Of a stretch of 64,000 bases of DNA, positions 27,631 to 64,000 are shown in pieces. The notes under the pieces were generated by a model. That model ran no database searches. It saw only the letters and a list, made by a program, of their open reading frames with translations, and had not been told where the DNA came from. The translations under genes and the position numbers were made by a program. Origin of the DNA: Nitrosopumilaceae archaeon (GTDB lineage: Archaea > Thermoproteota > Nitrososphaeria > Nitrososphaerales > Nitrosopumilaceae); the NCBI GenBank assembly GCA_965208905.1, contig OZ242365.1, positions 864,001-928,000 on the forward strand, given 5' to 3'. Numbering within the stretch: position 1 is the stretch's first letter; the number at the start of each line of letters is the position of its first letter.

Positions 27631-29246
27631 GGTTCCTCCCGCAAAGTCAGGTGACGGTTGATGTGTGTTGGATAGTGTTAAATACGTTATTGAACCGTAC
27701 TATATGATGGCTCTAGTCAAAAATAGCAGGGCAGTAACACGTCCATACACAAAAAATTTGGGCATGCGACATGTGTTTGAACATGTCAGGAAGGTGGCAG
27801 AAGTGGCGTACATTATAGCAGATAACACGGGGAAGAATACCTATGGTGTTAACGCATTAATATATCATATAATGCGCGGCCCTGACCCCAAAGTATATTC
27901 GTCCATAACGCAGACCGCCATACGGGACGGGGTTGCCGCCCATAAAACGTACAATACAAAGGCTGCGCAGGGCACGAAGGTGTCTGAACCTATATTTCGT
28001 AATCCGGTTGTAAAGTTGAAAAACCAAGATTGGAGGCTGAATCCGATAGCGGGTGGATATATGGCTATTGCAAATGTTGGCTCATCAAAACACCCACATA
28101 TGATAGCAATTCCCGTCTCTTCAGATGTGGTACGTAAAATAGGGCAAAATGAGTTGGGAGAGTTGTGGATCACGCCAACCACATATACCATTACATATTA
28201 CAACAAAGTGCCCAAGGTTGAAAAATCCCACCCACACGGCAAGTCAGAGATTATCGAACTACTTACGGATGTGGGCTGTGTGGGCGGTACACCAAAGGAT
28301 GTAATTGGCGTGGATATTAATGAAAAGAACATCACCGTAGGTGATAAAGATACAATGGTACAGTTTGATCTATCATACACGATACAGGCCATTGAGGGGG
28401 CAAAGACTGAGGATGTAAACAATACGTATACCCGTACACATGATAATATCGCATATGCGGCACGTACCGGAAGGTGTGTTGTACACAAGAAAGAGGAGGA
28501 GCGCAGAGAAAAGCAACAAGTCACACATGGTGGTCACAAGTTACACAGCAAACTCAAACGCAGATACAATAAACTCAAGAGGGAGGGCAAACACAAGAGG
28601 GCCGCCGAGATAAAGAAGCAGATGAGCAGATGCATATTGAGCATACCACATAACCACACAAAATCAAGGAAGAATGCTAAAAAGCGCAGGGTGGCCAAAG
28701 CCATGCGCCACCACGAACATGTGCTGAATGTGATAGCGTTATGTATAGCACAGTGGGCCGCACAATCCGGGTGCTTGGTGATGTTGGAGGATTTAACCCA
28801 TATATCGTATGGTTGGCAGAAGAATGGGAAGTTTGGCCATAATATGCGTCGCAGGTTACATTCTGCCATGATGCGAAAAGCATCGAATTTAATTTATGAA
28901 AAGTCCCAATTTTTGGGAGTAGAGGCATTACATATGCGTCCACACAACACATCCAAGCTATGTGCTGCATGTAGAACCCCACTAACTGGAGCTTATCATA
29001 AAAAAGACTGCACCCGCTGCCATACGGTTGGCGTAGATCGCGACGTCAACGCAGTGGAGAACATACGGCGAACAAGCGCCGTATCCCGATATGGTCGTAA
29101 GGTTTCGGCCAGTCTGGGCGAAGTCCGTCGTGGTGTGGATGTAATCCTCGATCCCACACCACTCATACAGGGTTGCTGGAGCAACTGGGCTGACAGGCTA
29201 TCCCGCATGGCGGGGGGTGTAATCACCCGACTTTGCGGGAGGAACC
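27631..29246 (+). mobile_element. Non-autonomous TIR element carrying tnpB, family A copy 2
   Basis: TIRs GGTTCCTCCCGCAAAGTCAGG / GGTTCCTCCCGCAAAGTCGGG; flanks CCTCATGTT (27622-27630) / CCTCGTGTT (29247-29255), 9 bp with 1 mismatch. Confidence 0.92.
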
Positions 29247-30611: not shown

Positions 30612-30658
30612 AAAATCTTAACAAATATGTATTTAGGCTCCTCCCGCAAAGTCGGGCG

Positions 30659-32224
30659 ATGGTTGATGTATTGTTGGATAGTGTTAAATACATTATTAAA
30701 CCGTACTATGTGATGGCTCTTGTAAAAAATAGCAGGGCAATAACACGTACATACACAAAAAATTTGGGTATGCGGTATGTGTTTGAGCATGTCAGGAAGG
30801 TGGCAGAAGTGGCGTACATTATAGCGAATAATACGGGGAAGAATACCTATGGTGTTAACGCATTAATGTATCGTACAATGCGCGGTCTTGACCCCAAAGT
30901 ACGTTCATCCATAACGCAGACCGCCATACGGGACGGGGTTGCCGCCCATAAAACGTACAATACAAAGACTGCGCAGGGCATGAAGGTATCTGAACCTGTA
31001 TTCTGTAATCCGGTTGTAAAGTTAACAAATCAAAGTTGGAGGCTGAATCCGATAGCGGGTGGATATATGGCTGTTGCAAATGTTGGCTCATCAAAACACC
31101 GACACATGATAGCAATTCCCATCTCTTTAGATGTGGTACGCAGAATAGGACAAAATGAGTTGGGCGAGTTGTGGATCACGCCAACCACCTATACAATTAC
31201 ATATTACAACAAAGTACCAACGGTTGAAAAACCCCACCCACACGGCAAGTCGGAGATTATTGAACTACTTACGGATGTGGGGCAGGTGGGCGGCACGCCA
31301 AAGGATGTGATTGGTGTTGATATTAATGAAAAGAACATCACCGTAGGTGATAAAAACACGATGGTACGGTTTGATCTATCATGTACAATACAGGCCATTG
31401 AGGAGGCAAAGACCGCGGATGTAAACAATACGTATACACGCACACATGATGATGCCGCATATGCAGCACGTACCGGAAGGCGTGTTGTACACAAGAAGGA
31501 GGAGGAGCGCAGGGGAAAACAACAAGTCACACATGGTGGTCCCAAACTATACAACAAACTCAGACGCAGATACAAGAAACTCAAGAGGGAGGGCAAACAC
31601 AAGAGGGCCGCGGAGATAAAGAAGCAGACGAACAGATGTATACTGAGCATACCACATAACCACACAAAGTCAAAAAAGAATGATAAAAAACGCAGGGTGG
31701 CCAAAGCCGTGCGCCGCCACGAACACGTGCTGAATGTAATAGCATTATGTATAGCACAGTGGGCCGCACAATCCGGGTGCTTGGTGATGTTGGAGGATTT
31801 AACCAATATATCGTACAGTTGGCAGAAGAATGGGAAGTTTGGCCATAATATGCGTCGCAGATTATATTCTGCCATGATGCGGAAAGCATCGAATTTAATT
31901 TATGAAAAGTCCCGGTTTTTGGGAGTGGAGGCATTACATATGCGTCCACACAATACATCCAAGTTGTGTGCTGCATGTAGAAACATACTAACTGGGACTT
32001 ATCATAAAAAAGACTGCACCCACTGTTGTACAGTTGGCGTAGATCGCGACGTCAATGCAGTGGAGAATATACGGCGAACAAGCGCCGTATCCCGATATGG
32101 TCGTCAGGTTTCGGCCAGTCTGGGCGAAGTCCGTCGTGATGTGGATGTAATCCTCGATCCCACACCACTCATACAGGGTTGCTGGAGCAACTGGGCTGAC
32201 AGACTATCCCGCATGGTGGTGTAA
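30659..32224 (+). CDS. tnpB: TnpB-family nuclease (lineage A)
   Basis: GVDINE, VMLED, CAAC..CTHC, DRDVNAVENI. Confidence 0.9.
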   Translation: MVDVLLDSVKYIIKPYYVMALVKNSRAITRTYTKNLGMRYVFEHVRKVAEVAYIIANNTGKNTYGVNALMYRTMRGLDPKVRSSITQTAIRDGVAAHKTYNTKTAQGMKVSEPVFCNPVVKLTNQSWRLNPIAGGYMAVANVGSSKHRHMIAIPISLDVVRRIGQNELGELWITPTTYTITYYNKVPTVEKPHPHGKSEIIELLTDVGQVGGTPKDVIGVDINEKNITVGDKNTMVRFDLSCTIQAIEEAKTADVNNTYTRTHDDAAYAARTGRRVVHKKEEERRGKQQVTHGGPKLYNKLRRRYKKLKREGKHKRAAEIKKQTNRCILSIPHNHTKSKKNDKKRRVAKAVRRHEHVLNVIALCIAQWAAQSGCLVMLEDLTNISYSWQKNGKFGHNMRRRLYSAMMRKASNLIYEKSRFLGVEALHMRPHNTSKLCAACRNILTGTYHKKDCTHCCTVGVDRDVNAVENIRRTSAVSRYGRQVSASLGEVRRDVDVILDPTPLIQGCWSNWADRLSRMVV

Positions 32225-32248
32225 TCACCCGACTTTGCGGGAGGAACC
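32069..32248 (+). ncRNA. Putative omegaRNA scaffold of family A (equivalent regions in the other three copies)
   Basis: Hairpins ATACGGCG/CGCCGTAT, GGTCG/CGGCC, GTTGC/GCAAC, TCCCGCA/TGCGGGA; more conserved between copies than the ORF body; position matches known tnpB omegaRNAs; 5' boundary uncertain. Confidence 0.65.
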
Positions 32249-42660: not shown

Positions 42661-44304
42661 GGTTCCTCCCGCAAAGTCGGGTGATTACACCCCCGCCATG
42701 CGGGATAGTCTGTCGGCCCAGTTGCTCCAGCAACCCTGTATGAGTGGTGTGGGATCGAGTATTACATCCACACCACGACGGACTTCGCCCAGACTGGCCG
42801 AAACCTGACGACCATACCGGGATACGGCGCTTGTTCGCCGTATGTTCTCCACTGCATTGACGTCGCGATCTACGCCAACTGTACAACAGTGGGTGCAGTC
42901 TTTTTTATGATAAGTTCCAGTTAGTGGGGTTCTACATACAGCACATAGCTTGGATGTGTTGTGTGGGCGCATATGTAATGCCTCCACTCCCAAAAATTGG
43001 GACTTTTCATAAATTAAATTCGATGCTTTCCGCATCATGGCAGAATATAATCTGCGACGCATATTATGGAAATCCTCCAACATCACCAAGCACCCGGATT
43101 GTGCGGCCCACTGTGCTATACATAATGCATCCCAAACTTCCCATTCTTCTATCCAACATCACCAAGCACCCGGATTGTGCGGCCCACTGTGCTATACATA
43201 ATGCTATTACATTCAGCACGTTCGTGGCGGCGCACGGCTTTGGCCACCCTGCGTTTTTTATCATTCTTTTTTGACTTTGTGTGGTTATGCGGTATGCTCA
43301 ATATGCATCTGCTCATCTGCCTCTTTATTTCGGCGGCCTTCTTGTGTTTGCCCTCCCTCTTGAGTTTATTGTATCTGCGTTTGAGTTTGCTGTGTAACTT
43401 GTGACCACCATGTGTGACTTGTTGCCTTTCTCTGCGCTCCTCTTTTTTGTGTACAACGCGCCTTCCGGTACGTGCCGCATATGCGATATTATCATGTGTA
43501 CGTGTATACGTATTGTTTGCATCCGCAGTCTTTGCCTCCTCAATGGCCTGTATGGTATCGGATAGATCAAACCGTACCATCGTGTTTTTATCACCTACGG
43601 TGATGTTCTTTTCATTGATGTCTATGCCAATTACATCCCTTGGTGTACCGCCCACATACCCCACATCCGTAAGTAGTTCAATAATCTCTGACTTGCCGTG
43701 TGGGTGGGGGTTTTCAACCTTTGGTACTTTGTTGTAATATGTAATTGTATATGTGGTTGGCGTGATCCACAACTCACCTAGTTCATTTTGTCCTATTCTG
43801 CGTACCACATCTGAAGAGACGGGAATTGCTATCATGTGTCGGTGTTTTGATGAGCCAACATTTGCAACAGCCATATATCCACCCGCTATCGGATTCAGTC
43901 TCCAATCTTGGTTTTTCAACTTTACAACCGGATTACGAAATATAGGCTCAGACACCTTCATGCCCTGCGCAGTCTTTGTTTTGTGCGTTTTATAGGCGAC
44001 GACCCCGTCCCGTATGGCGGTCTGCGTTATAGATGAACGTACTTTGGGGTCAGGGCCGCGCATTGTACTATACATCAATGCATTAACACCATAGGTATCC
44101 TTTCCCGTATTATTCGCTATAATGTACGCCACCTCTGCCACCTTCCTGACATGTTCAAACACATGCCGCATACCCAAATTTTTTGTGAGTGGGCGCGTTA
44201 TAGCCCTGCTATTTTTTACTGATGCCACTACATAGTACGGTTCAATGGTGTATTTAACATCATCCAACACACAACAACCACCACCCGTCCTTGCGGGAGG
44301 AACC
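42661..44304 (-). mobile_element. Non-autonomous TIR element carrying disrupted tnpB, family A copy 4
   Basis: TIRs GGTTCCTCCCGCAAAGTCGGG / GGTTCCTCCCGCAAGGACGGG; TSD TAGTTCTG at 42653-42660 and 44305-44312. Confidence 0.95.
42685..44270 (-). pseudogene. tnpB: TnpB (lineage A) broken by a 2-bp deletion and an internal duplication/rearrangement
   Basis: Three partial ORFs; 53-bp direct repeat 43076-43128 / 43152-43204. Confidence 0.88.
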
Positions 44305-59820: not shown

Positions 59821-60717
59821 TTGACTGCTGATGTGAGCAAAGACATAGAAAACGTGGAGACAGATGTAACTGATTCTGTCACTGAAACAGACGCAAACTT
59901 GGATGCGACTGCAGAACCGGCAACTGACACAACACCTGATGATGTGATTGAACCTGATATGTCTGCTGCAGAACCTAGTGATGCTGACATTGAGACAGAC
60001 CAGTTGAGCAAGGATTCGGGTATAGAGTACGATGATTCTGCAGAACCTAGTGATGCTGACATTGAGACAGACCAGTTGAGCAAGGATTCGGGTATAGAGT
60101 CCGATGATGCTGACATTGAGACAGACCAGTTGAGCAAGGATTTGGGTATAGAGTCCGATGATGCTGCAGAACCCGACCCAAAAAAACCCCGTGAATTATC
60201 CGAGGAGGCGCGTGCTAAAATTGATGCTATGATCGCAGATGGAAGACTTGATGATGACTTTGGCGATGGACAGCCTGCAGTTATAGCTGATAAACCTGAA
60301 AAATGGGGCATAGCCCACATCTTTAGTAGTTTTAACAATACAATAATACATTTGACTGACCTTACGGGTGCTGAAACCATAGCCATAAGCTCTGGCGGAC
60401 AGCACTCTAATGCAGATAGATATGAGTCATCCCCATTTGCCGCCATGAAGGCAGCCAATGCGGTGGTAGATGTTGCACGTGCTAGAGGGTTTACAGGATT
60501 TCACATTCGCGTCCGTGCAGTTGGTGGCGTGGGCTCTCGAGTTCCAGGACCTGGTGCGCAGGCAGCCATTAGGGCACTGGCAAGGGCCACATCAAACAAA
60601 GATGATGATCCAGATTCTGGACTGGGTGCATTCCGTATAGGCCGTATAGATGATGTCACACCAATTCCTCATGATACCACTAGGAAGAAAGGCGGAAAAC
60701 GCGGAAGACGAGTCTAA
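59821..60717 (+). CDS. rps11: Ribosomal protein uS11 with long acidic N-terminal extension
   Basis: [44 protein letters not shown]. Confidence 0.9.
59980..60154 (+). repeat. Three in-frame copies of a 49-bp core ([12 protein letters not shown][S/L]GIE)
   Basis: Copies start at 59980, 60052, 60106 (periods 72 and 54 bp). Confidence 0.92.
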
Positions 60718-60821
60718 CAGGTTTGTCTCTAGAACTGTTTCTTGAGTTGTCAATATGTCCTATATCTGTGGTTAAACTCGGTTCCTACTGCAAGCACGGG
60801 GGTTCCCACACCTACAATACA

Positions 60822-62216
60822 TTACACGTCACGCCAGAGGACGACGGTGCATGACACATCTCGTTCCCCGGTCTGTGCTTGACGTTTCTCAGGGGAGCTA
60901 ACGCAAGAACCCTCCACGTCCAGACACCCCTTAACATGGGTGCTGCCGGTATTGTCCGGCAAGTTTCGTAAGTTTAGTTGACCATGTCTGGCCCTCGGGC
61001 CGAGTTTCTTCAGCCCCACATCCTCTATGTTTGAGCCCGCATTACAGTCGGCATGATACCTGTAGCCACACTTTTTACACAAGAACCGTCTACCATCCCG
61101 GTTATCTTTATGTGTATAACCGCACGAGTAGCACCGTTGGCTTGTATACGCTGCCGCAACCCAAATTATCTCTCCAGCCAACTTGTACGCCAATAGAGCG
61201 GCGAGCAGCCCCCAGCACTGCTCTAGGATGGCCTTATTGAGACCAGATTTTTGCGCAACGTTCTTGCCGGGTTTTTCTTTGGTACCTTTGACGGACTTTG
61301 CCATATTTTGTATGGGTAGATTCTCCATGGCTGCATGTGTGGTACTGTCCGATATAACGCGTGATATTTTATGCGCGGTGGTCTTTCGAATATTTGCGGC
61401 TTTGCGTTTGTTCTTGGCGGCACGTTTACTGGCTTTGGCCCACCGTCGGGAGCCGGGCTTGCGATTCGTATAATTGGGTTTATGCCTGCGCGAGGCTATC
61501 TTTTGCGCCTTAGAGGCTGTTTTTTCGGCGTTATTCATGCGACGTGTGACCTTTTCGGGTACCATTATTACACAGTCAGGTGTGGCCACATTACCGACAT
61601 TCCGGTCTATGCCAATAACGGTCTGCTCGGTCACGGTTGGCTTCTCGTCTGGTACATCACAAGATATGGTAATCCTCCACCCACCATCCGGTAGTTGAAA
61701 TAGTTGCGCGGTCTTGTATCGGTAATTCAGGACGGGAAACTCCCGAGACAGTTTAACCTCGCCCATCTTGGCTATCTTGATTGTACGTGTATCGGTGAAG
61801 CGCGCTTGGCCGACGGTGCCATCATGCGTTATTATAAACGGGATGGAGATTCGCTCACCGTGTCGTTTAAAGTGTGGTTCACCAAACTCCGCCTTAGGTT
61901 TGATGTCAGCAGCCTTCAGCCTCTCTGTTTCCACATATTGGTCATAATGCCTTCCCAAGTCATATAATATTTGGCGCGTCACCCCGGATATAGACTGACG
62001 CAGCCAACACGGACCCGAACGGTTGCGCAAGTCCGTATACCAGGCGTTTATCCTACCCTGTGTGGTGTTGACCCTTCCAGCTCGACGGTACTCCTCCTTG
62101 AAGGTTTCCAATAATTTGTTATACACGTACCTGTCCATGCCGGCCTGTCTGGCCAACATCTCCTTCTTGAACCCTTTACGGAATCTAACGCCGAATGTGT
62201 ATGTACGTAGTACCAT
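60822..62216 (-). CDS. tnpB: TnpB-family nuclease (lineage B)
   Basis: RYVYN, GIDRN, AMENL, YTSQRCYSC..CKKC, HADCNAGSNI. Confidence 0.93.
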   Translation of the reverse strand: MVLRTYTFGVRFRKGFKKEMLARQAGMDRYVYNKLLETFKEEYRRAGRVNTTQGRINAWYTDLRNRSGPCWLRQSISGVTRQILYDLGRHYDQYVETERLKAADIKPKAEFGEPHFKRHGERISIPFIITHDGTVGQARFTDTRTIKIAKMGEVKLSREFPVLNYRYKTAQLFQLPDGGWRITISCDVPDEKPTVTEQTVIGIDRNVGNVATPDCVIMVPEKVTRRMNNAEKTASKAQKIASRRHKPNYTNRKPGSRRWAKASKRAAKNKRKAANIRKTTAHKISRVISDSTTHAAMENLPIQNMAKSVKGTKEKPGKNVAQKSGLNKAILEQCWGLLAALLAYKLAGEIIWVAAAYTSQRCYSCGYTHKDNRDGRRFLCKKCGYRYHADCNAGSNIEDVGLKKLGPRARHGQLNLRNLPDNTGSTHVKGCLDVEGSCVSSPEKRQAQTGERDVSCTVVLWRDV

Positions 62217-62432
62217 TAGCGTATAGTACGGTCCACATGTTTAAAAAGATAGTTGAGGTGTGATATATGGCACCCGTCCTTGCGGGAGGAACCAGCGTTG
62301 AGGTTCCTCCCGCAAGGACGGGTGGTGGGGTAATTGTTTAGTCACTTTACGACTAGTGATTTTTGTACCAGATTGGGTCAAAATCGTCCCCGATTGCCGG
62401 CATCTTGAGAGTGGTGTTGAAAAGTTACGTAA

Positions 62433-63649
62433 TTGGTTAAGAAATCTTCTCCTATGATCTTAAATAATATGATAAATTGGAGTATGTATGGGACAGAAGA
62501 ACACCCGCAAGCCCCGGAATGGCAGGGCCTCGGGGAATGGTATAACGCGCCGCGGCTTCACATATACCAGAAGGGCGACCAGATCAAGACCCTGACCGGG
62601 AATCGTTGGGGCGTGGCCTCCCAGAGTGAGAATGTGTGGTATCGTGTATAGTTTGCGGACAAGAGCCCCACATGCGAGTGCGCTTACCACACCACCGGGA
62701 ATGGGTGCCGCGACATAGCACATGGCTGCGGTCGAGCACTATCTACTCGTATAGTCCGAGACCGCCCTCGGCAAGAATATCGAAATCAACGAGCATAAAC
62801 TGATGTGTCCAAAGTGCAAGGAAACAAAGTACCCCCGCGACGGATGGTATTGCGGCAAGCACAAAAAGAGGCAGAGGTACAAGTGTACCAAATGCGGGCG
62901 GCGGTTCGCAGGACAACCTGGGCTTTGAGTACCGACAGGTGCCGCGCCTGTACATCACGCTGGCCCTGATATTGTCGGGGATAGGGATGTCGGTGACCAA
63001 CACCCAAATGGCGCTCGGCCACCTGGGTGTAAAGGTGCACGTGGACACTACACCCAGGATACTGGAGCACTATTTTGAGGTGGTGCAAAGTACCCAGAGA
63101 CCATCAAGCCTCCGTGCGTGGGGGACAAGTGGGGCTGCGAGGGGAAGCACCAGAAGGTCCGCGGCAGGGAGTTATACGTCACGGTCATTATGTGTATCTC
63201 CACCCAATTCATACTGGCATTGAACACGACGCCCACCAAAAAGGGGTACGACACCGTCCCCCTACTGCAGAAGGCCCGAAATATGGCGGGGAAGGTTCTC
63301 AGGCTGTTCATTACAGACGGTACACACCAGTACCATGTGGCCTTCAAGAAGGTATTCCTCACGCTGAAGGGCCTCAGATGTATACACATACGCGACATCC
63401 ACATCCGGAACTTCATCTGCAACACCAACAAGCAGGAGCGGCTCAACGGAGAGCTGGCAGGCCACCATACGGTACGCCCGCGGCATAAACAGAGAAGAGT
63501 CGCCGATATTCCGCATGGCGATTATACGCCACAACTACATTAAACCCCACGGCGGCATAATGTACAGGACGCCGGCAGAGGCCGCTGGCATGGACATACG
63601 CGGCTCCAACATATGGCTGACGCTCATACAGAGTGCTGTAGCCGTCTGA
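62433..63649 (+). pseudogene. IS6/IS1-like DDE transposase with SWIM-like and Zn-ribbon domains, multiply frameshifted
   Basis: Fragments CECAYH..C, CPKC..RYKCTKCGRRF, FITDG..Y, NKQERLNG, HNYIKPH..TPAEAAG..W; first catalytic W..DE motif reads WGCEG. Confidence 0.8.
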
Positions 63650-63881
63650 GGAGCCCCAAACGCCCGACATCGTCGAACAGAATGGATTTTTACCCCCTCA
63701 CCCGTCCTGTTCCGGCAGGACTTTACAAAAAACCGGTCCGAAATGCATCCCGGCGGCCCCTGTATGCCCGGTTTGTACAGGATTGCGGCCCGGATCCAGA
63801 CCATTTAGAGCGACCGCCCGACTTTGCGGGAGGAACCTTAAACTCTAATGTAGCTCAACTAGAGTCTTCATAATGTGGACC

Positions 63882-64000
63882 ATGGATCAGGATGAGACAT
63901 ATTTTCGCATATTTGATTCAGAAAAACGTATCGCTGGATACTTTGATCCCCAATACGGTGAGCATGCCGATGATGATGAAATTGAATTAATGCTTAAAAA
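63882..64000 (+). CDS. Hypothetical protein, runs off window end
   Basis: MDQDETYFRIFDSEKRIAGYFDPQYG... open to edge. Confidence 0.5.
   Translation, partial: MDQDETYFRIFDSEKRIAGYFDPQYGEHADDDEIELMLK

Follow-up and report, generated by a model that had tools for sequence, protein, structure and literature searches.

Organisation of the composite unit

Two mobile elements lie end to end at positions 60780-63837 of the window, the 64,000-nucleotide stretch of Nitrosopumilaceae DNA analysed here (source genome G000; sister genomes are labelled G001, G002, G005, G006, G007 and G009, and public runs X1, X5, X6 and X7). They form a unit of 3058 bp, in which a tnpB element of 1514 bp (60780..62293, minus strand) is joined to a decayed transposase element of 1536 bp (62302..63837, plus strand). 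The 8-bp sequence TTAAACTC brackets this unit as a target-site duplication, with its left copy at 60772..60779 and its right copy at 63838..63845. The flanks match at 8/8 positions when the unit is taken as a whole, and at 0/8 for either module by itself.

Both modules end in inverted terminal repeats (TIRs) of 21 nt. The outer TIR of the tnpB module, on the tnpB 3′ side (60780..60800, plus strand), has three mismatches to the inner one (62273..62293, minus strand, 0 mismatches). In the transposase module, the inner TIR (62302..62322, plus strand) was identified by TIR search and by its match across the junction, and the outer TIR (63817..63837, minus strand) carries two mismatches and is identical to the TIR common in tnpB family A. 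The inner TIRs of the two modules match at 21/21 positions and meet in a junction at 62273-62322, CCCGTCCTTGCGGGAGGAACC / AGCGTTGA / GGTTCCTCCCGCAAGGACGGG, whose arms of 23 nt each are 100% complementary and enclose the 8-bp spacer AGCGTTGA (62294..62301). With up to three mismatches allowed, the window contains 11 occurrences of the TIR, against 0.01 expected from shuffles. A first-pass annotation had described the outer TTAAACTC pair, the 3058-bp span, the TIR-8 bp-TIR junction and the lack of a duplication belonging to either module, and all of these were found in place.

Two other assignments were considered and rejected. A compound transposon does not fit, since the modules are different elements with only 8 bp between them, and only one of them was ever transposase-coding. 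Nor is this an IS200/IS605 or IS607 element, as the unit has 21-nt TIRs and 8-bp duplications and its only other gene is a DDE transposase.

Insertion as a single unit

The site is empty in the sister genome G005, where flanks 96.7-98.4% identical to those of the source genome enclose a single TTAAACTC. Contigs of X6 and X7 also represent the empty site, joining position 60771 directly to 63838. The spacer AGCGTTGA is absent from the empty site and is therefore foreign to the present one. An empty site with one TTAAACTC, together with a foreign spacer, means that the pair inserted as one unit via its outer ends, which bears out the earlier proposal of a joint move. Had two insertions occurred independently at this place, the spacer should be TTAAACTC or some other 8-mer of the site, and each module should have a duplication of its own; neither is observed.

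A misassembly could mimic such a unit, because the junction is a perfect 23-8-23 palindrome and lies between multi-copy repeats, a setting in which assembly errors can arise. A contig of X1 (19,450 nt) is identical to 62264-64000 throughout and crosses the spacer to include, without a difference, 9 nt of the tnpB module past the TIR. Its left overhang amounts to 38 letters before the boundary between spacer and transposase module, and to 30 before that between tnpB module and spacer, where the rule was 31; that the contig ends 30 nt into the tnpB module is a point in favour of an artefact. A second X1 contig (741 nt) spans 60600-60853. X1 is possibly the genome's own sample, and its contigs are then independent of the assembler and not of the sample. 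In X5, from a second study, both outer ends are held by contigs, one with 37 letters of the transposase-module end and the right flank, and another with the left flank and 28 letters of the tnpB-module end. Finally, the same geometry recurs three more times in two other genomes, as described below. Taken with the spacer, these observations leave both the artefact and the two-insertion scenario close to refuted.

The transposase module and its family

The transposase module is an IS6-like insertion sequence (IS) and the sole full copy of its kind in the source genome; its DNA is 72-79% identical to the best full-length copies in sister genomes. Three-frame translation, and tblastn with an intact protein from G009, reveal five frameshifts and two in-frame stops in its gene (62488..63649, plus strand) relative to the intact 388-aa homologue; as the first reading of the sequence had concluded, the gene is a pseudogene. 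Broken into pieces, the window transposase itself has no Pfam match. Classification therefore relied on intact homologues. One of these (L002:868-2034) scores 30.4 bits against Pfam DDE_Tnp_IS240 (PF13610; cutoff 27), and this domain is precomputed for most of 125 homologues. The NCBIfam IS6 model NF033587 gives 73.8 bits, which is below its cutoff of 125 and is still the best score among nine transposase models (IS1, 41.9). These matches narrow the original IS6/IS1-like call to IS6-like.

Hallmarks of the IS6/IS26 group in ISfinder are a single DDE transposase with a DDE_Tnp_IS240 domain, short TIRs and 8-bp duplications. The present family differs in the length of its elements (about 1.45-1.54 kb), in its 388-aa enzyme, which bears an extra N-terminal SWIM-like finger and an N-terminal zinc ribbon of the IS1/IS1595 type, and in the 9-bp duplications of some sister elements.

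The elements that house the intact 388-aa homologues measure 1453 and 1482 bp, have near-identical TIRs and are flanked by 8/8 duplications. Such duplications were found for L002, L007 and six more G009 copies, with TIRs of at least 20 nt. The expectation that an intact transposase exists elsewhere was thus borne out for the sister genome G009, with at least eight open copies, and failed for G000, which has no intact cognate gene. Other DDE transposase genes of G000 (25-29% identical) have no GGTTCC-type TIRs around them at 12 places.

tnpB elements that share these ends

The source genome contains about 25 tnpB elements in two families (A and B) that share these TIRs and duplications, alongside no intact cognate transposase. 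Of 30 TIR pairs, 14 are flanked by 8/8 duplications and three more by 7/8 (17/30 with at least 7/8). Over its first 27 nt the transposase module agrees letter for letter with the end of family A copy 4 (window 44304-44278), as previously noted, and with a further copy at G000:838959. With the 21/21 match of the inner TIRs, this places the TnpB here among DDE-associated TnpBs in the sense of Altae-Tran et al. (2023). The common TIRs and 8-bp duplications, of L002 and L007 (8/8) and of the 17 pairs in G000, support the idea, put forward in the first-pass annotation, that one enzyme family mobilises the GGTTCC-ended tnpB elements.

The arrangement extends beyond this TIR class. In G006, G001 and G009, tnpB likewise lies within TIRs of two further classes that are shared with DDE-transposase elements, and in sister genomes the duplications of some related tnpB elements measure 9 bp. 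Two family A copies at different sites are 99.7% identical, which indicates recent activity. Among copies without duplications no reciprocal flank pairs, which would be the trace of inversions or cointegrates, were found, a result that speaks neither for nor against cointegrates. In G002 and G007, long open frames (609-946 aa) surround family-A-like genes; they were dismissed as artefacts of GC-rich sequence and are not fusions.

The tnpB module itself belongs to family B, which has eight further full-length copies in the source genome (89-94% identity) and one copy with an insertion; most of these relatives have 8-bp duplications of their own. Its ORF (60822..62216, minus strand) is intact and encodes 464 aa, in which three acidic motifs can be read that we take to be those of RuvC. 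The protein matches NCBIfam guided_TnpB (4.8e-46; NF040570, 157.8 bits, cutoff 100) and Pfam OrfB_IS605, Cas12f1-like_TNB and HTH_OrfB_IS605 (PF01385, PF07282 and PF12323, all over cutoff), as befits a TnpB with its RuvC-like domain and zinc ribbon. Residues 3-402 align with the solved ISDra2 TnpB (8h1j, 8bf8), a full-length match. Median dN/dS among copies is 0.19 for family B (21 pairs) and 0.23 for family A (35/36 pairs, one near-identical pair having no ratio because dS = 0).

At its 3′ end tnpB overlaps a structured region, a putative omega-RNA scaffold, that reaches the end of the element (60780..60965, minus strand). This region is almost invariant among homologues whose elements share just 64-68% identity. 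RNAalifold predicts 37 pairs, five with compensatory changes, in a partly covarying structure that extends to the TIR. An Rfam scan of 60600-64000 assigned the region to no family and returned two chance miRNA-like matches on the palindrome. Intact ORF, full-length match, low dN/dS and conserved 3′ RNA region together make for a functional-looking TnpB. The 60780-60965 region may act as its guide RNA. By its geometry, the adjoining flank (60760..60779, minus strand), made up of the duplication and 12 further nt, would be the putative source of the guide.

Junctions formed by abutting insertion

A search for TIR-TIR junctions with gaps of 4-12 bp recovered four in 3/10 genomes of the genus, with gaps of 8, 8, 8 and 7 bp. 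The three besides that of the composite are spread over two other genomes, G009 and G006. One junction in G009 has the order CGCCGGAC-IS-CGCCGGAC-MITE-CGTCGGGC, the third copy matching at 6/8 positions; the 7-bp junction of the same genome shows a related three-copy pattern in which the outer copy is not cleanly resolved. The junction in G006 reads TGTTTTTT-MITE-TGTTTTTT-IS. The occurrence of the same 8-mer three times at two junctions indicates that the duplication next to a resident end serves as the insertion site of new copies. The suggestion that one end had attacked next to another thus gains support from three further junctions of the genus, with spacers of 8, 8 and 7 bp. A corresponding pattern for the GGTTC-N4-GCAA TIR class, which is unable to match the window's own class, gave no hits in the 10 genomes.

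Across genome contigs, the junction pattern was found in 19 stretches, the only related one being a Nitrosopumilaceae record with a junction of the G006 type. The remaining 18 stretches come from unrelated bacteria and have other spacings.

Abutting inverted repeats are known as tandem dimers or IR-IR junctions in IS30 (PMC9333248) and in the IS3, IS21 and IS256 families (PMC3299598), where these sources describe them as reactive intermediates of copy-out-paste-in transposition. The junctions reported here resemble them in that two ends abut with few bp between. They differ from the junctions so described in that roughly the same 8-mer flanks both elements on either side at 2/4 junctions, a pattern consistent with ordinary insertion into the duplication beside a resident end, and in that the joints are stable enough to be passed on and mobilised.

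The spacer AGCGTTGA of the composite is probably the duplication remaining from the site where both elements first adjoined. A donor site with AGCGTTGA adjoining a TIR was found neither in G000 nor in G005, G009, G006, G001 or G002, so that this first step is reconstructed rather than seen. The composite may be a snapshot of an autonomous tnpA+tnpB element in formation, as was first proposed; its transposase, however, is by now dead, and the 10 genomes of the genus yielded no intact composite.

The converse history would make the composite an ancestral autonomous bipartite element, with an old junction, from which solo tnpB elements and ISs were freed as halves via the internal TIRs. An older remnant in the source genome (1047821-1048609) speaks for such a history: positions 1-387 of the tnpB module are joined to 691-835 and 1283-1536 of the transposase module, in the order and polarity of the composite and at 67-82% identity. 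This remnant, however, is without a junction and has no duplication (2/8). Transposase-only ISs with their own 8/8 duplications are common in sister genomes, where tnpB homologues in other TIR classes are found without a transposase. The three-copy 8-mer junctions of G009 show joints arising anew by insertion, and an intact composite is absent from the 10 genomes of the genus. We therefore consider descent from an ancestral composite improbable, and favour the joining of two separate elements.

A site motif beside the duplication

Directly outside the right copy of the duplication, and thus just 5′ of it in tnpB orientation, lies TAAT (63846..63849, minus strand), a TAM-like motif that reads ATTA on the tnpB strand. 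In G000, TTR occurs 5′ of the duplication in 9/10 family B elements, the composite included, versus 1/10 on the mirror side (P = 5e-13). In family A the motif is TA, present in 14/14 elements versus 1/14 on the mirror side (P = 7e-17). Exceptions are one family B copy with GTTT, one G006 copy with TTC, and two of four distant family-A-like copies without TA. MITE copies were examined as a second control (13, of which two have 8/8 duplications) and proved too decayed to be informative. A motif specific to each tnpB family fits a TAM that serves TnpB homing.

An unlikely alternative is that the motif is no TAM, and reflects either a transposase whose target preference is orientation-specific, or a TnpB that steers insertion to the side of its TAM rather than acting through later selection. 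Even the youngest pair (99.7% identical) has the motif, and three of eight transposase-only copies in other genomes, used as a control, carry an upstream ATT on the 5′ side of the transposase when re-oriented by TIR type. Against this alternative, these copies show no consistent motif (TTR on 3/16 sides, on no consistent side), the motif is one-sided where DDE strand transfer is symmetric, and TTR and TA differ between tnpB families of one TIR class in one genome. Moreover, in the sister genomes G005, G001 and G006 a given tnpB family keeps its motif where its TIR class is a different one. As for steering, an old guide cannot match new sites, so that it could use the TAM only.

A proposed two-step origin and a putative role for TnpB

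In our favoured explanation, in which we place good confidence, the composite pairs two different members of one TIR family, which were joined elsewhere and then moved as one, and the tnpB elements of the genus are passengers of IS6-like transposases. The cargo element carries only tnpB and its 3′ structured RNA; its partner is the IS6-like insertion sequence whose gene has decayed. In a first step, at another site, one element would have inserted into the AGCGTTGA duplication abutting the end of the other, giving the TIR-8 bp-TIR joint. In a second step, an IS6-like transposase supplied in trans would have used the two outermost TIRs, moving 3058 bp to the site downstream of rps11 and generating the new 8-bp duplication TTAAACTC. 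As the transposase of the unit is dead and G000 has no intact cognate, the enzyme that moved it is hypothetical.

TnpB would probably aid persistence of these passengers, with a guide copied from the flank at the tnpB 3′ end and starting with the duplication. The empty allele consists of motif, duplicated 8-mer and flank; a TAM outside the duplication would thus let TnpB cleave alleles that are empty while leaving occupied ones intact.

A more far-reaching reading, which we offer tentatively, is that TnpB is fitted to a transposase with arbitrary duplications, and that the composite is the next step, a self-sufficient transposase+tnpB element assembled by insertion-attracting IS6-like ends. 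The duplicated 8-mer would serve as the first 8 nt of the guide, with the TAM just outside. Only insertions beside a TAM would then drive into empty alleles, so that every surviving tnpB element would adjoin one. An IS inserting exactly into the 8-mer between TAM and tnpB element would keep TAM, duplication and guide in register, and the resulting self-sufficient element would be the one that did move.

Relation to known systems

TnpB in DDE/TIR elements has already been published for other DDE families, and the IS6-like case described here is a variant of that theme. The main text of Altae-Tran et al. (2023; PMC10691335) names IS630 only among the transposases of DDE-associated TnpB transposons, and proposes mobilisation in trans for solo tnpB copies with the ends of transposase-bearing elements; a 2026 review (PMC13565253) lists ISL2, IS630 and IS1031 as DDE partners. 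The present elements resemble those transposons, as the main text describes them, in having tnpB within inverted terminal repeats and its 3′ end less than 250 bp from the element end. Neither that main text nor the review mentions an IS6-like partner, a Nitrosopumilaceae host, variable 8-9-bp duplications with an outside motif, or a TIR-8 bp-TIR composite, and the supplements of the former (DDE-1 to DDE-6) may list an IS6-like partner. The literature searched contained nothing relevant on a link between IS6 and TnpB.

In common with the tnpB elements of IS200/IS605 and IS607, those studied here have TnpB, a 3′ structured RNA and a short T-rich motif 5′ of the left end, given in the review as TTAC for IS608 and TTGAT for ISDra2 (PMC13565253). 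Unlike them, they lack a Y1 or serine TnpA, have TIRs and duplications, and have the duplicated 8-mer between motif and element end. Fanzor, the eukaryotic TnpB, is likewise an RNA-guided nuclease carried by duplication-making DDE transposons with TIRs. There, according to the same review, the TAM includes the 5′ duplication and the RNA scaffold includes the 3′ one, an arrangement that suits fixed duplications (TA, TTAA). Here, in contrast, a variable duplication has the motif beyond it and would itself supply the first 8 nt of the guide.

The review suggests that the scarcity of DDE partners among prokaryotes stems from inflexible target recognition by TnpB (PMC13565253). The question of how TnpB serves transposons beyond IS200/IS605 and IS607 is addressed in this genus by a multi-copy natural system, with two tnpB families, at least three TIR classes, intact sister-genome transposases, clean empty sites and a family-specific outside motif. 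With a motif outside a variable duplication, homing alongside a transposase that generates duplications acquires a concrete geometry that can be tested. Together with the three other joints, the composite documents insertion beside a resident end in an IS6-like family, and such abutting insertion would be a simple route to fusing cargo and transposase elements.

Structure of the composite unit

In the closed genome of this Nitrosopumilaceae archaeon (G000; 2.21 Mb, 45.6% G+C), the window (G000:C1:864001-928000) contains a composite unit of 3058 bp at 60780-63837, downstream of rps11 (59821-60717; Pfam Ribosomal_S11) and flanked on both sides by TTAAACTC. Module B (60780-62293) has tnpB on the minus strand, an intact gene of 464 aa, and module T (62302-63837) has the transposase gene, which lies on the plus strand. 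The module B protein matches the NCBIfam model guided_TnpB (4.8e-46) and three Pfam TnpB domains, and aligns over its full length to the solved ISDra2 TnpB. The modules meet at a junction of inner TIR, AGCGTTGA and inner TIR, with perfectly complementary arms of 23 nt each, and neither module alone has matching flanks (0/8 for both). The first-pass annotation had described this TIR-8 bp-TIR joint and a duplication around the whole unit but around neither module, and both are present. The left end of module T equals the tnpB-5'-side end of tnpB family B over 23 nt, its right end is the common end of family A, and 27 nt of the module T end are common to two family A copies. The neighbouring rps11 encodes an acidic-rich N-terminal extension of ~160 aa with three near-identical repeats.

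Insertion as one piece

The composite unit moved as one piece, as had been proposed. In the sister genome G005, where the flanks are 96.7-98.4% identical, the site downstream of rps11 is empty and the flanks overlap by exactly one TTAAACTC. Contigs from two public sequencing runs of different studies (X6 and X7) likewise run straight from 60771 to 63838, 8 letters being assignable to either side. Under the 31-letter rule by which such joins were scored, a contig of run X5 (another study) joins 37 letters of the module T end to the right flank; a second X5 contig has the left flank and 28 letters of the module B end, below the rule. A 19,450-nt contig of run X1 matches 62264-64000 exactly. Two separate local insertions at this site would not account for the spacer, since AGCGTTGA is no part of the empty site. 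A second, old and degraded remnant of 789 bp (G000:C1:1047821-1048609) has B positions 1-387 fused to two stretches of T, positions 691-835 and 1283-1536, in the order and polarity of the window composite and at 67-82% identity; it has no duplication, and an earlier composite is therefore hinted at, not proven.

Transposase family and state

The annotation took the module T gene for a pseudogene of an IS6/IS1-like enzyme and expected an intact copy to exist or have existed elsewhere, and these inferences are supported. Relative to an intact 388-aa homologue in sister genome G009 (L002:868-2034), the window gene has five frame changes and two in-frame stops. The homologue passes Pfam DDE_Tnp_IS240 (30.4 bits, cutoff 27), has IS6 as its best NCBIfam model, though below cutoff (73.8 bits against 125), and bears an IS1/IS1595-type zinc ribbon at its N-terminal side. 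Its 125 database homologues, without informative names in the sources, mostly contain PF13610, and some have SWIM or InsA zinc-finger domains. Intact elements in sister genomes measure 1453-1482 bp, with near-identical TIRs and perfect 8-bp duplications; among 17 transposase loci inspected, 8 have 8/8 duplications, namely L002, L007 and another six copies of G009. A search of G000 found no further copy of the subfamily except one old fragment, and the remaining DDE genes of G000 share 25-29% identity and are without these TIRs.

Contigs of X5 and X6, diverged by 4-8% from module T, show 1-nt length differences near two frameshifts (window 62553 and 63086), and other populations may harbour relatives that are less degenerate. 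Three IS6-like copies in G009 (L051 at G009:C1:1256200-1260300, L052 and L053) are split by an insert of 1.6-3.3 kb, whose 403-aa product we take to resemble an IS110-type transposase. The insert lies at IS position ~995 in two copies and ~940 in one, suggesting site-specific insertion into the IS.

tnpB elements sharing the TIRs

At up to 5 mismatches, G000 contains 78 TIR-like matches and 30 plus/minus TIR pairs, with duplications of 8/8 in 14 and 7/8 in 3; one further pair has a 9-bp duplication matching 8/9. The pairs fall into two families. Family B (~1515 bp) comprises nine copies, including the window module and one with an insertion, and one MITE; family A (~1615 bp) comprises twelve full copies, and two MITEs, with four copies inside the window. 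The 521-aa family A protein passes Pfam Cas12f1-like_TNB (29.3 bits) and matches guided_TnpB weakly. Among G000 copies, dN/dS has a median of 0.19 in family B (21 pairs) and of 0.23 in family A (36 pairs, of which one yielded no ratio, its dS being 0).

Two family A copies (window 27631-29246, a site empty in G005, and G000:C1:329442-331057) differ at 5/1619 positions and have unlike flanks, which indicates recent transposition, though G000 is without an intact cognate transposase. Two other family A sites, at window 30636-32248 and 42661-44304, have no clean empty counterpart in G005, where the conserved flanks are separated by other sequence, 3.3 kb and 9.6 kb long.

Homologues of the family B TnpB in sister genomes (62-67% identical) reside in elements whose TIRs belong to other IS6-like classes. 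Because the TIRs of sister-genome tnpB elements match those of co-resident transposase ISs within 2-3 mismatches, the tnpB-IS6-like association is genus-wide. The tnpB elements are probably passengers of the IS6-like family. Sister-genome tnpB elements of other IS6-like TIR classes (L023, L029, L031, L025, L030, L026 and L037) have perfect 9-bp, not 8-bp, duplications.

Origin of the joint

Outward-facing TIRs separated by 4-12 bp were sought in 10 genomes of the genus, and four junctions were found in three of them, with gaps of 8, 8, 8 and 7 bp. In G009, the junction near 1,345,092 reads CGCCGGAC-IS-CGCCGGAC-MITE-CGTCGGGC; near 1,814,521, one 8-mer occurs twice, in full to the right of the IS and lacking a base in the spacer, with a degenerate third copy beyond the MITE that is not cleanly resolved. 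The G006 junction reads TGTTTTTT-MITE-TGTTTTTT-IS, followed by unrelated flank. From their sequences, these G009 and G006 junctions would be the expected outcome of ordinary insertion into a duplication abutting a resident end. The earlier idea that one end attacked beside another is supported by these three further cases (gaps of 8, 8 and 7 bp). Of the four junctions, only that of the window unit combines a spacer foreign to its site with a fresh outer duplication, and this unit is therefore the only one that moved later. The search for AGCGTTGA as a duplication at a donor site was fruitless: no surviving donor was found in G000, G005, G009, G006, G001 or G002.

A motif beside the duplication and its possible role

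Each element was oriented by its tnpB, and on the tnpB-5' side the tetranucleotide lying 5' of the duplication was read. G000 family B has TTR in 9/10 cases (four ATTG, two CTTG, three ATTA including the composite, and one GTTT; mirror side 1/10). Family A has TA in 14/14 (TTA 9, ATA 5; mirror side 1/14), the duplication always beginning with C or T (14/14). Given genome backgrounds of 0.033 (TTR) and 0.070 (TA), the family B count has P = 5e-13 and the family A count P = 7e-17. Elsewhere, we found TTR in 4/4 (G005 family B), TTA in 5/5 (G005 family-A-like), TTG in 3/4 (G001/G006 family B), TCA in 3/4 (G009/G002 family B) and TA in 2/4 (distant family-A-like). Loci L073, L074, L081, L095, L096 and L036, without a credible TIR pair by script, and L079 and L080, with an evidently false one, were excluded.

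Transposase-only copies with perfect duplications (n=8) have TTR on 3/16 sides, with no consistent side. The motif could stem from a preference of the enzyme or from steering of insertion; our preferred explanation is selection of insertions beside a TAM. In the composite, ATTA stands past the outer end of module T and the 5' side of module B is preceded by the T TIR, in keeping with insertion of the unit as a whole. All five G000 tnpB copies without a duplication (92955, 703872, 805876, 838959 and 945644, all outside the window) retain the motif at a distance of 8 nt from the tnpB-5' end, so that in each case it is the flank on the tnpB 3' (RNA) side that has changed.

The ~190-nt region between the tnpB 3' end and the TIR hardly varies, though the elements are otherwise 64-68% identical, and has a partly covarying predicted fold (37 pairs, 5 with compensatory changes). 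By its position, which is that of TnpB guide RNAs in known systems, it is a putative guide RNA. Transcription into the flank would give a guide whose first bases are the duplicated 8-mer. An empty allele (motif, 8-mer and flank) would then be a TnpB target, and the occupied allele would be spared, its 3' 8-mer copy coming after a TIR and its 5' copy having a TIR next. A homing nuclease could in this way be of use to a transposase whose target duplications are arbitrary 8-mers, if insertion adjoins a TAM.

Relation to known systems

The kind of system is already known. Six TnpB branches are tied to DDE transposases, all with inverted terminal repeats, and solo TnpBs bear the ends of transposase-bearing elements, for which in-trans mobilisation has been proposed; IS630 is the only DDE family that the main text names (Altae-Tran et al. 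2023, PMC10691335). A 2026 review lists ISL2, IS630 and IS1031 (PMC13565253). Its account of Fanzor places the 5' duplication within the TAM and the 3' duplication within the scaffold (PMC13565253), whereas in the G000 tnpB elements the motif lies outside the duplication. Literature searches yielded no IS6-TnpB link and nothing for Thaumarchaeota, as judged for PMC10691335 from its main text. As far as checked, four details are apparently new: the IS6-like partner, the geometry with a putative TAM outside the duplication, the mobile composite and the insertion beside resident ends. The composite is real, and the earlier interpretation of it is supported. In principle this is an ordinary system, and in its details an unusually informative one.
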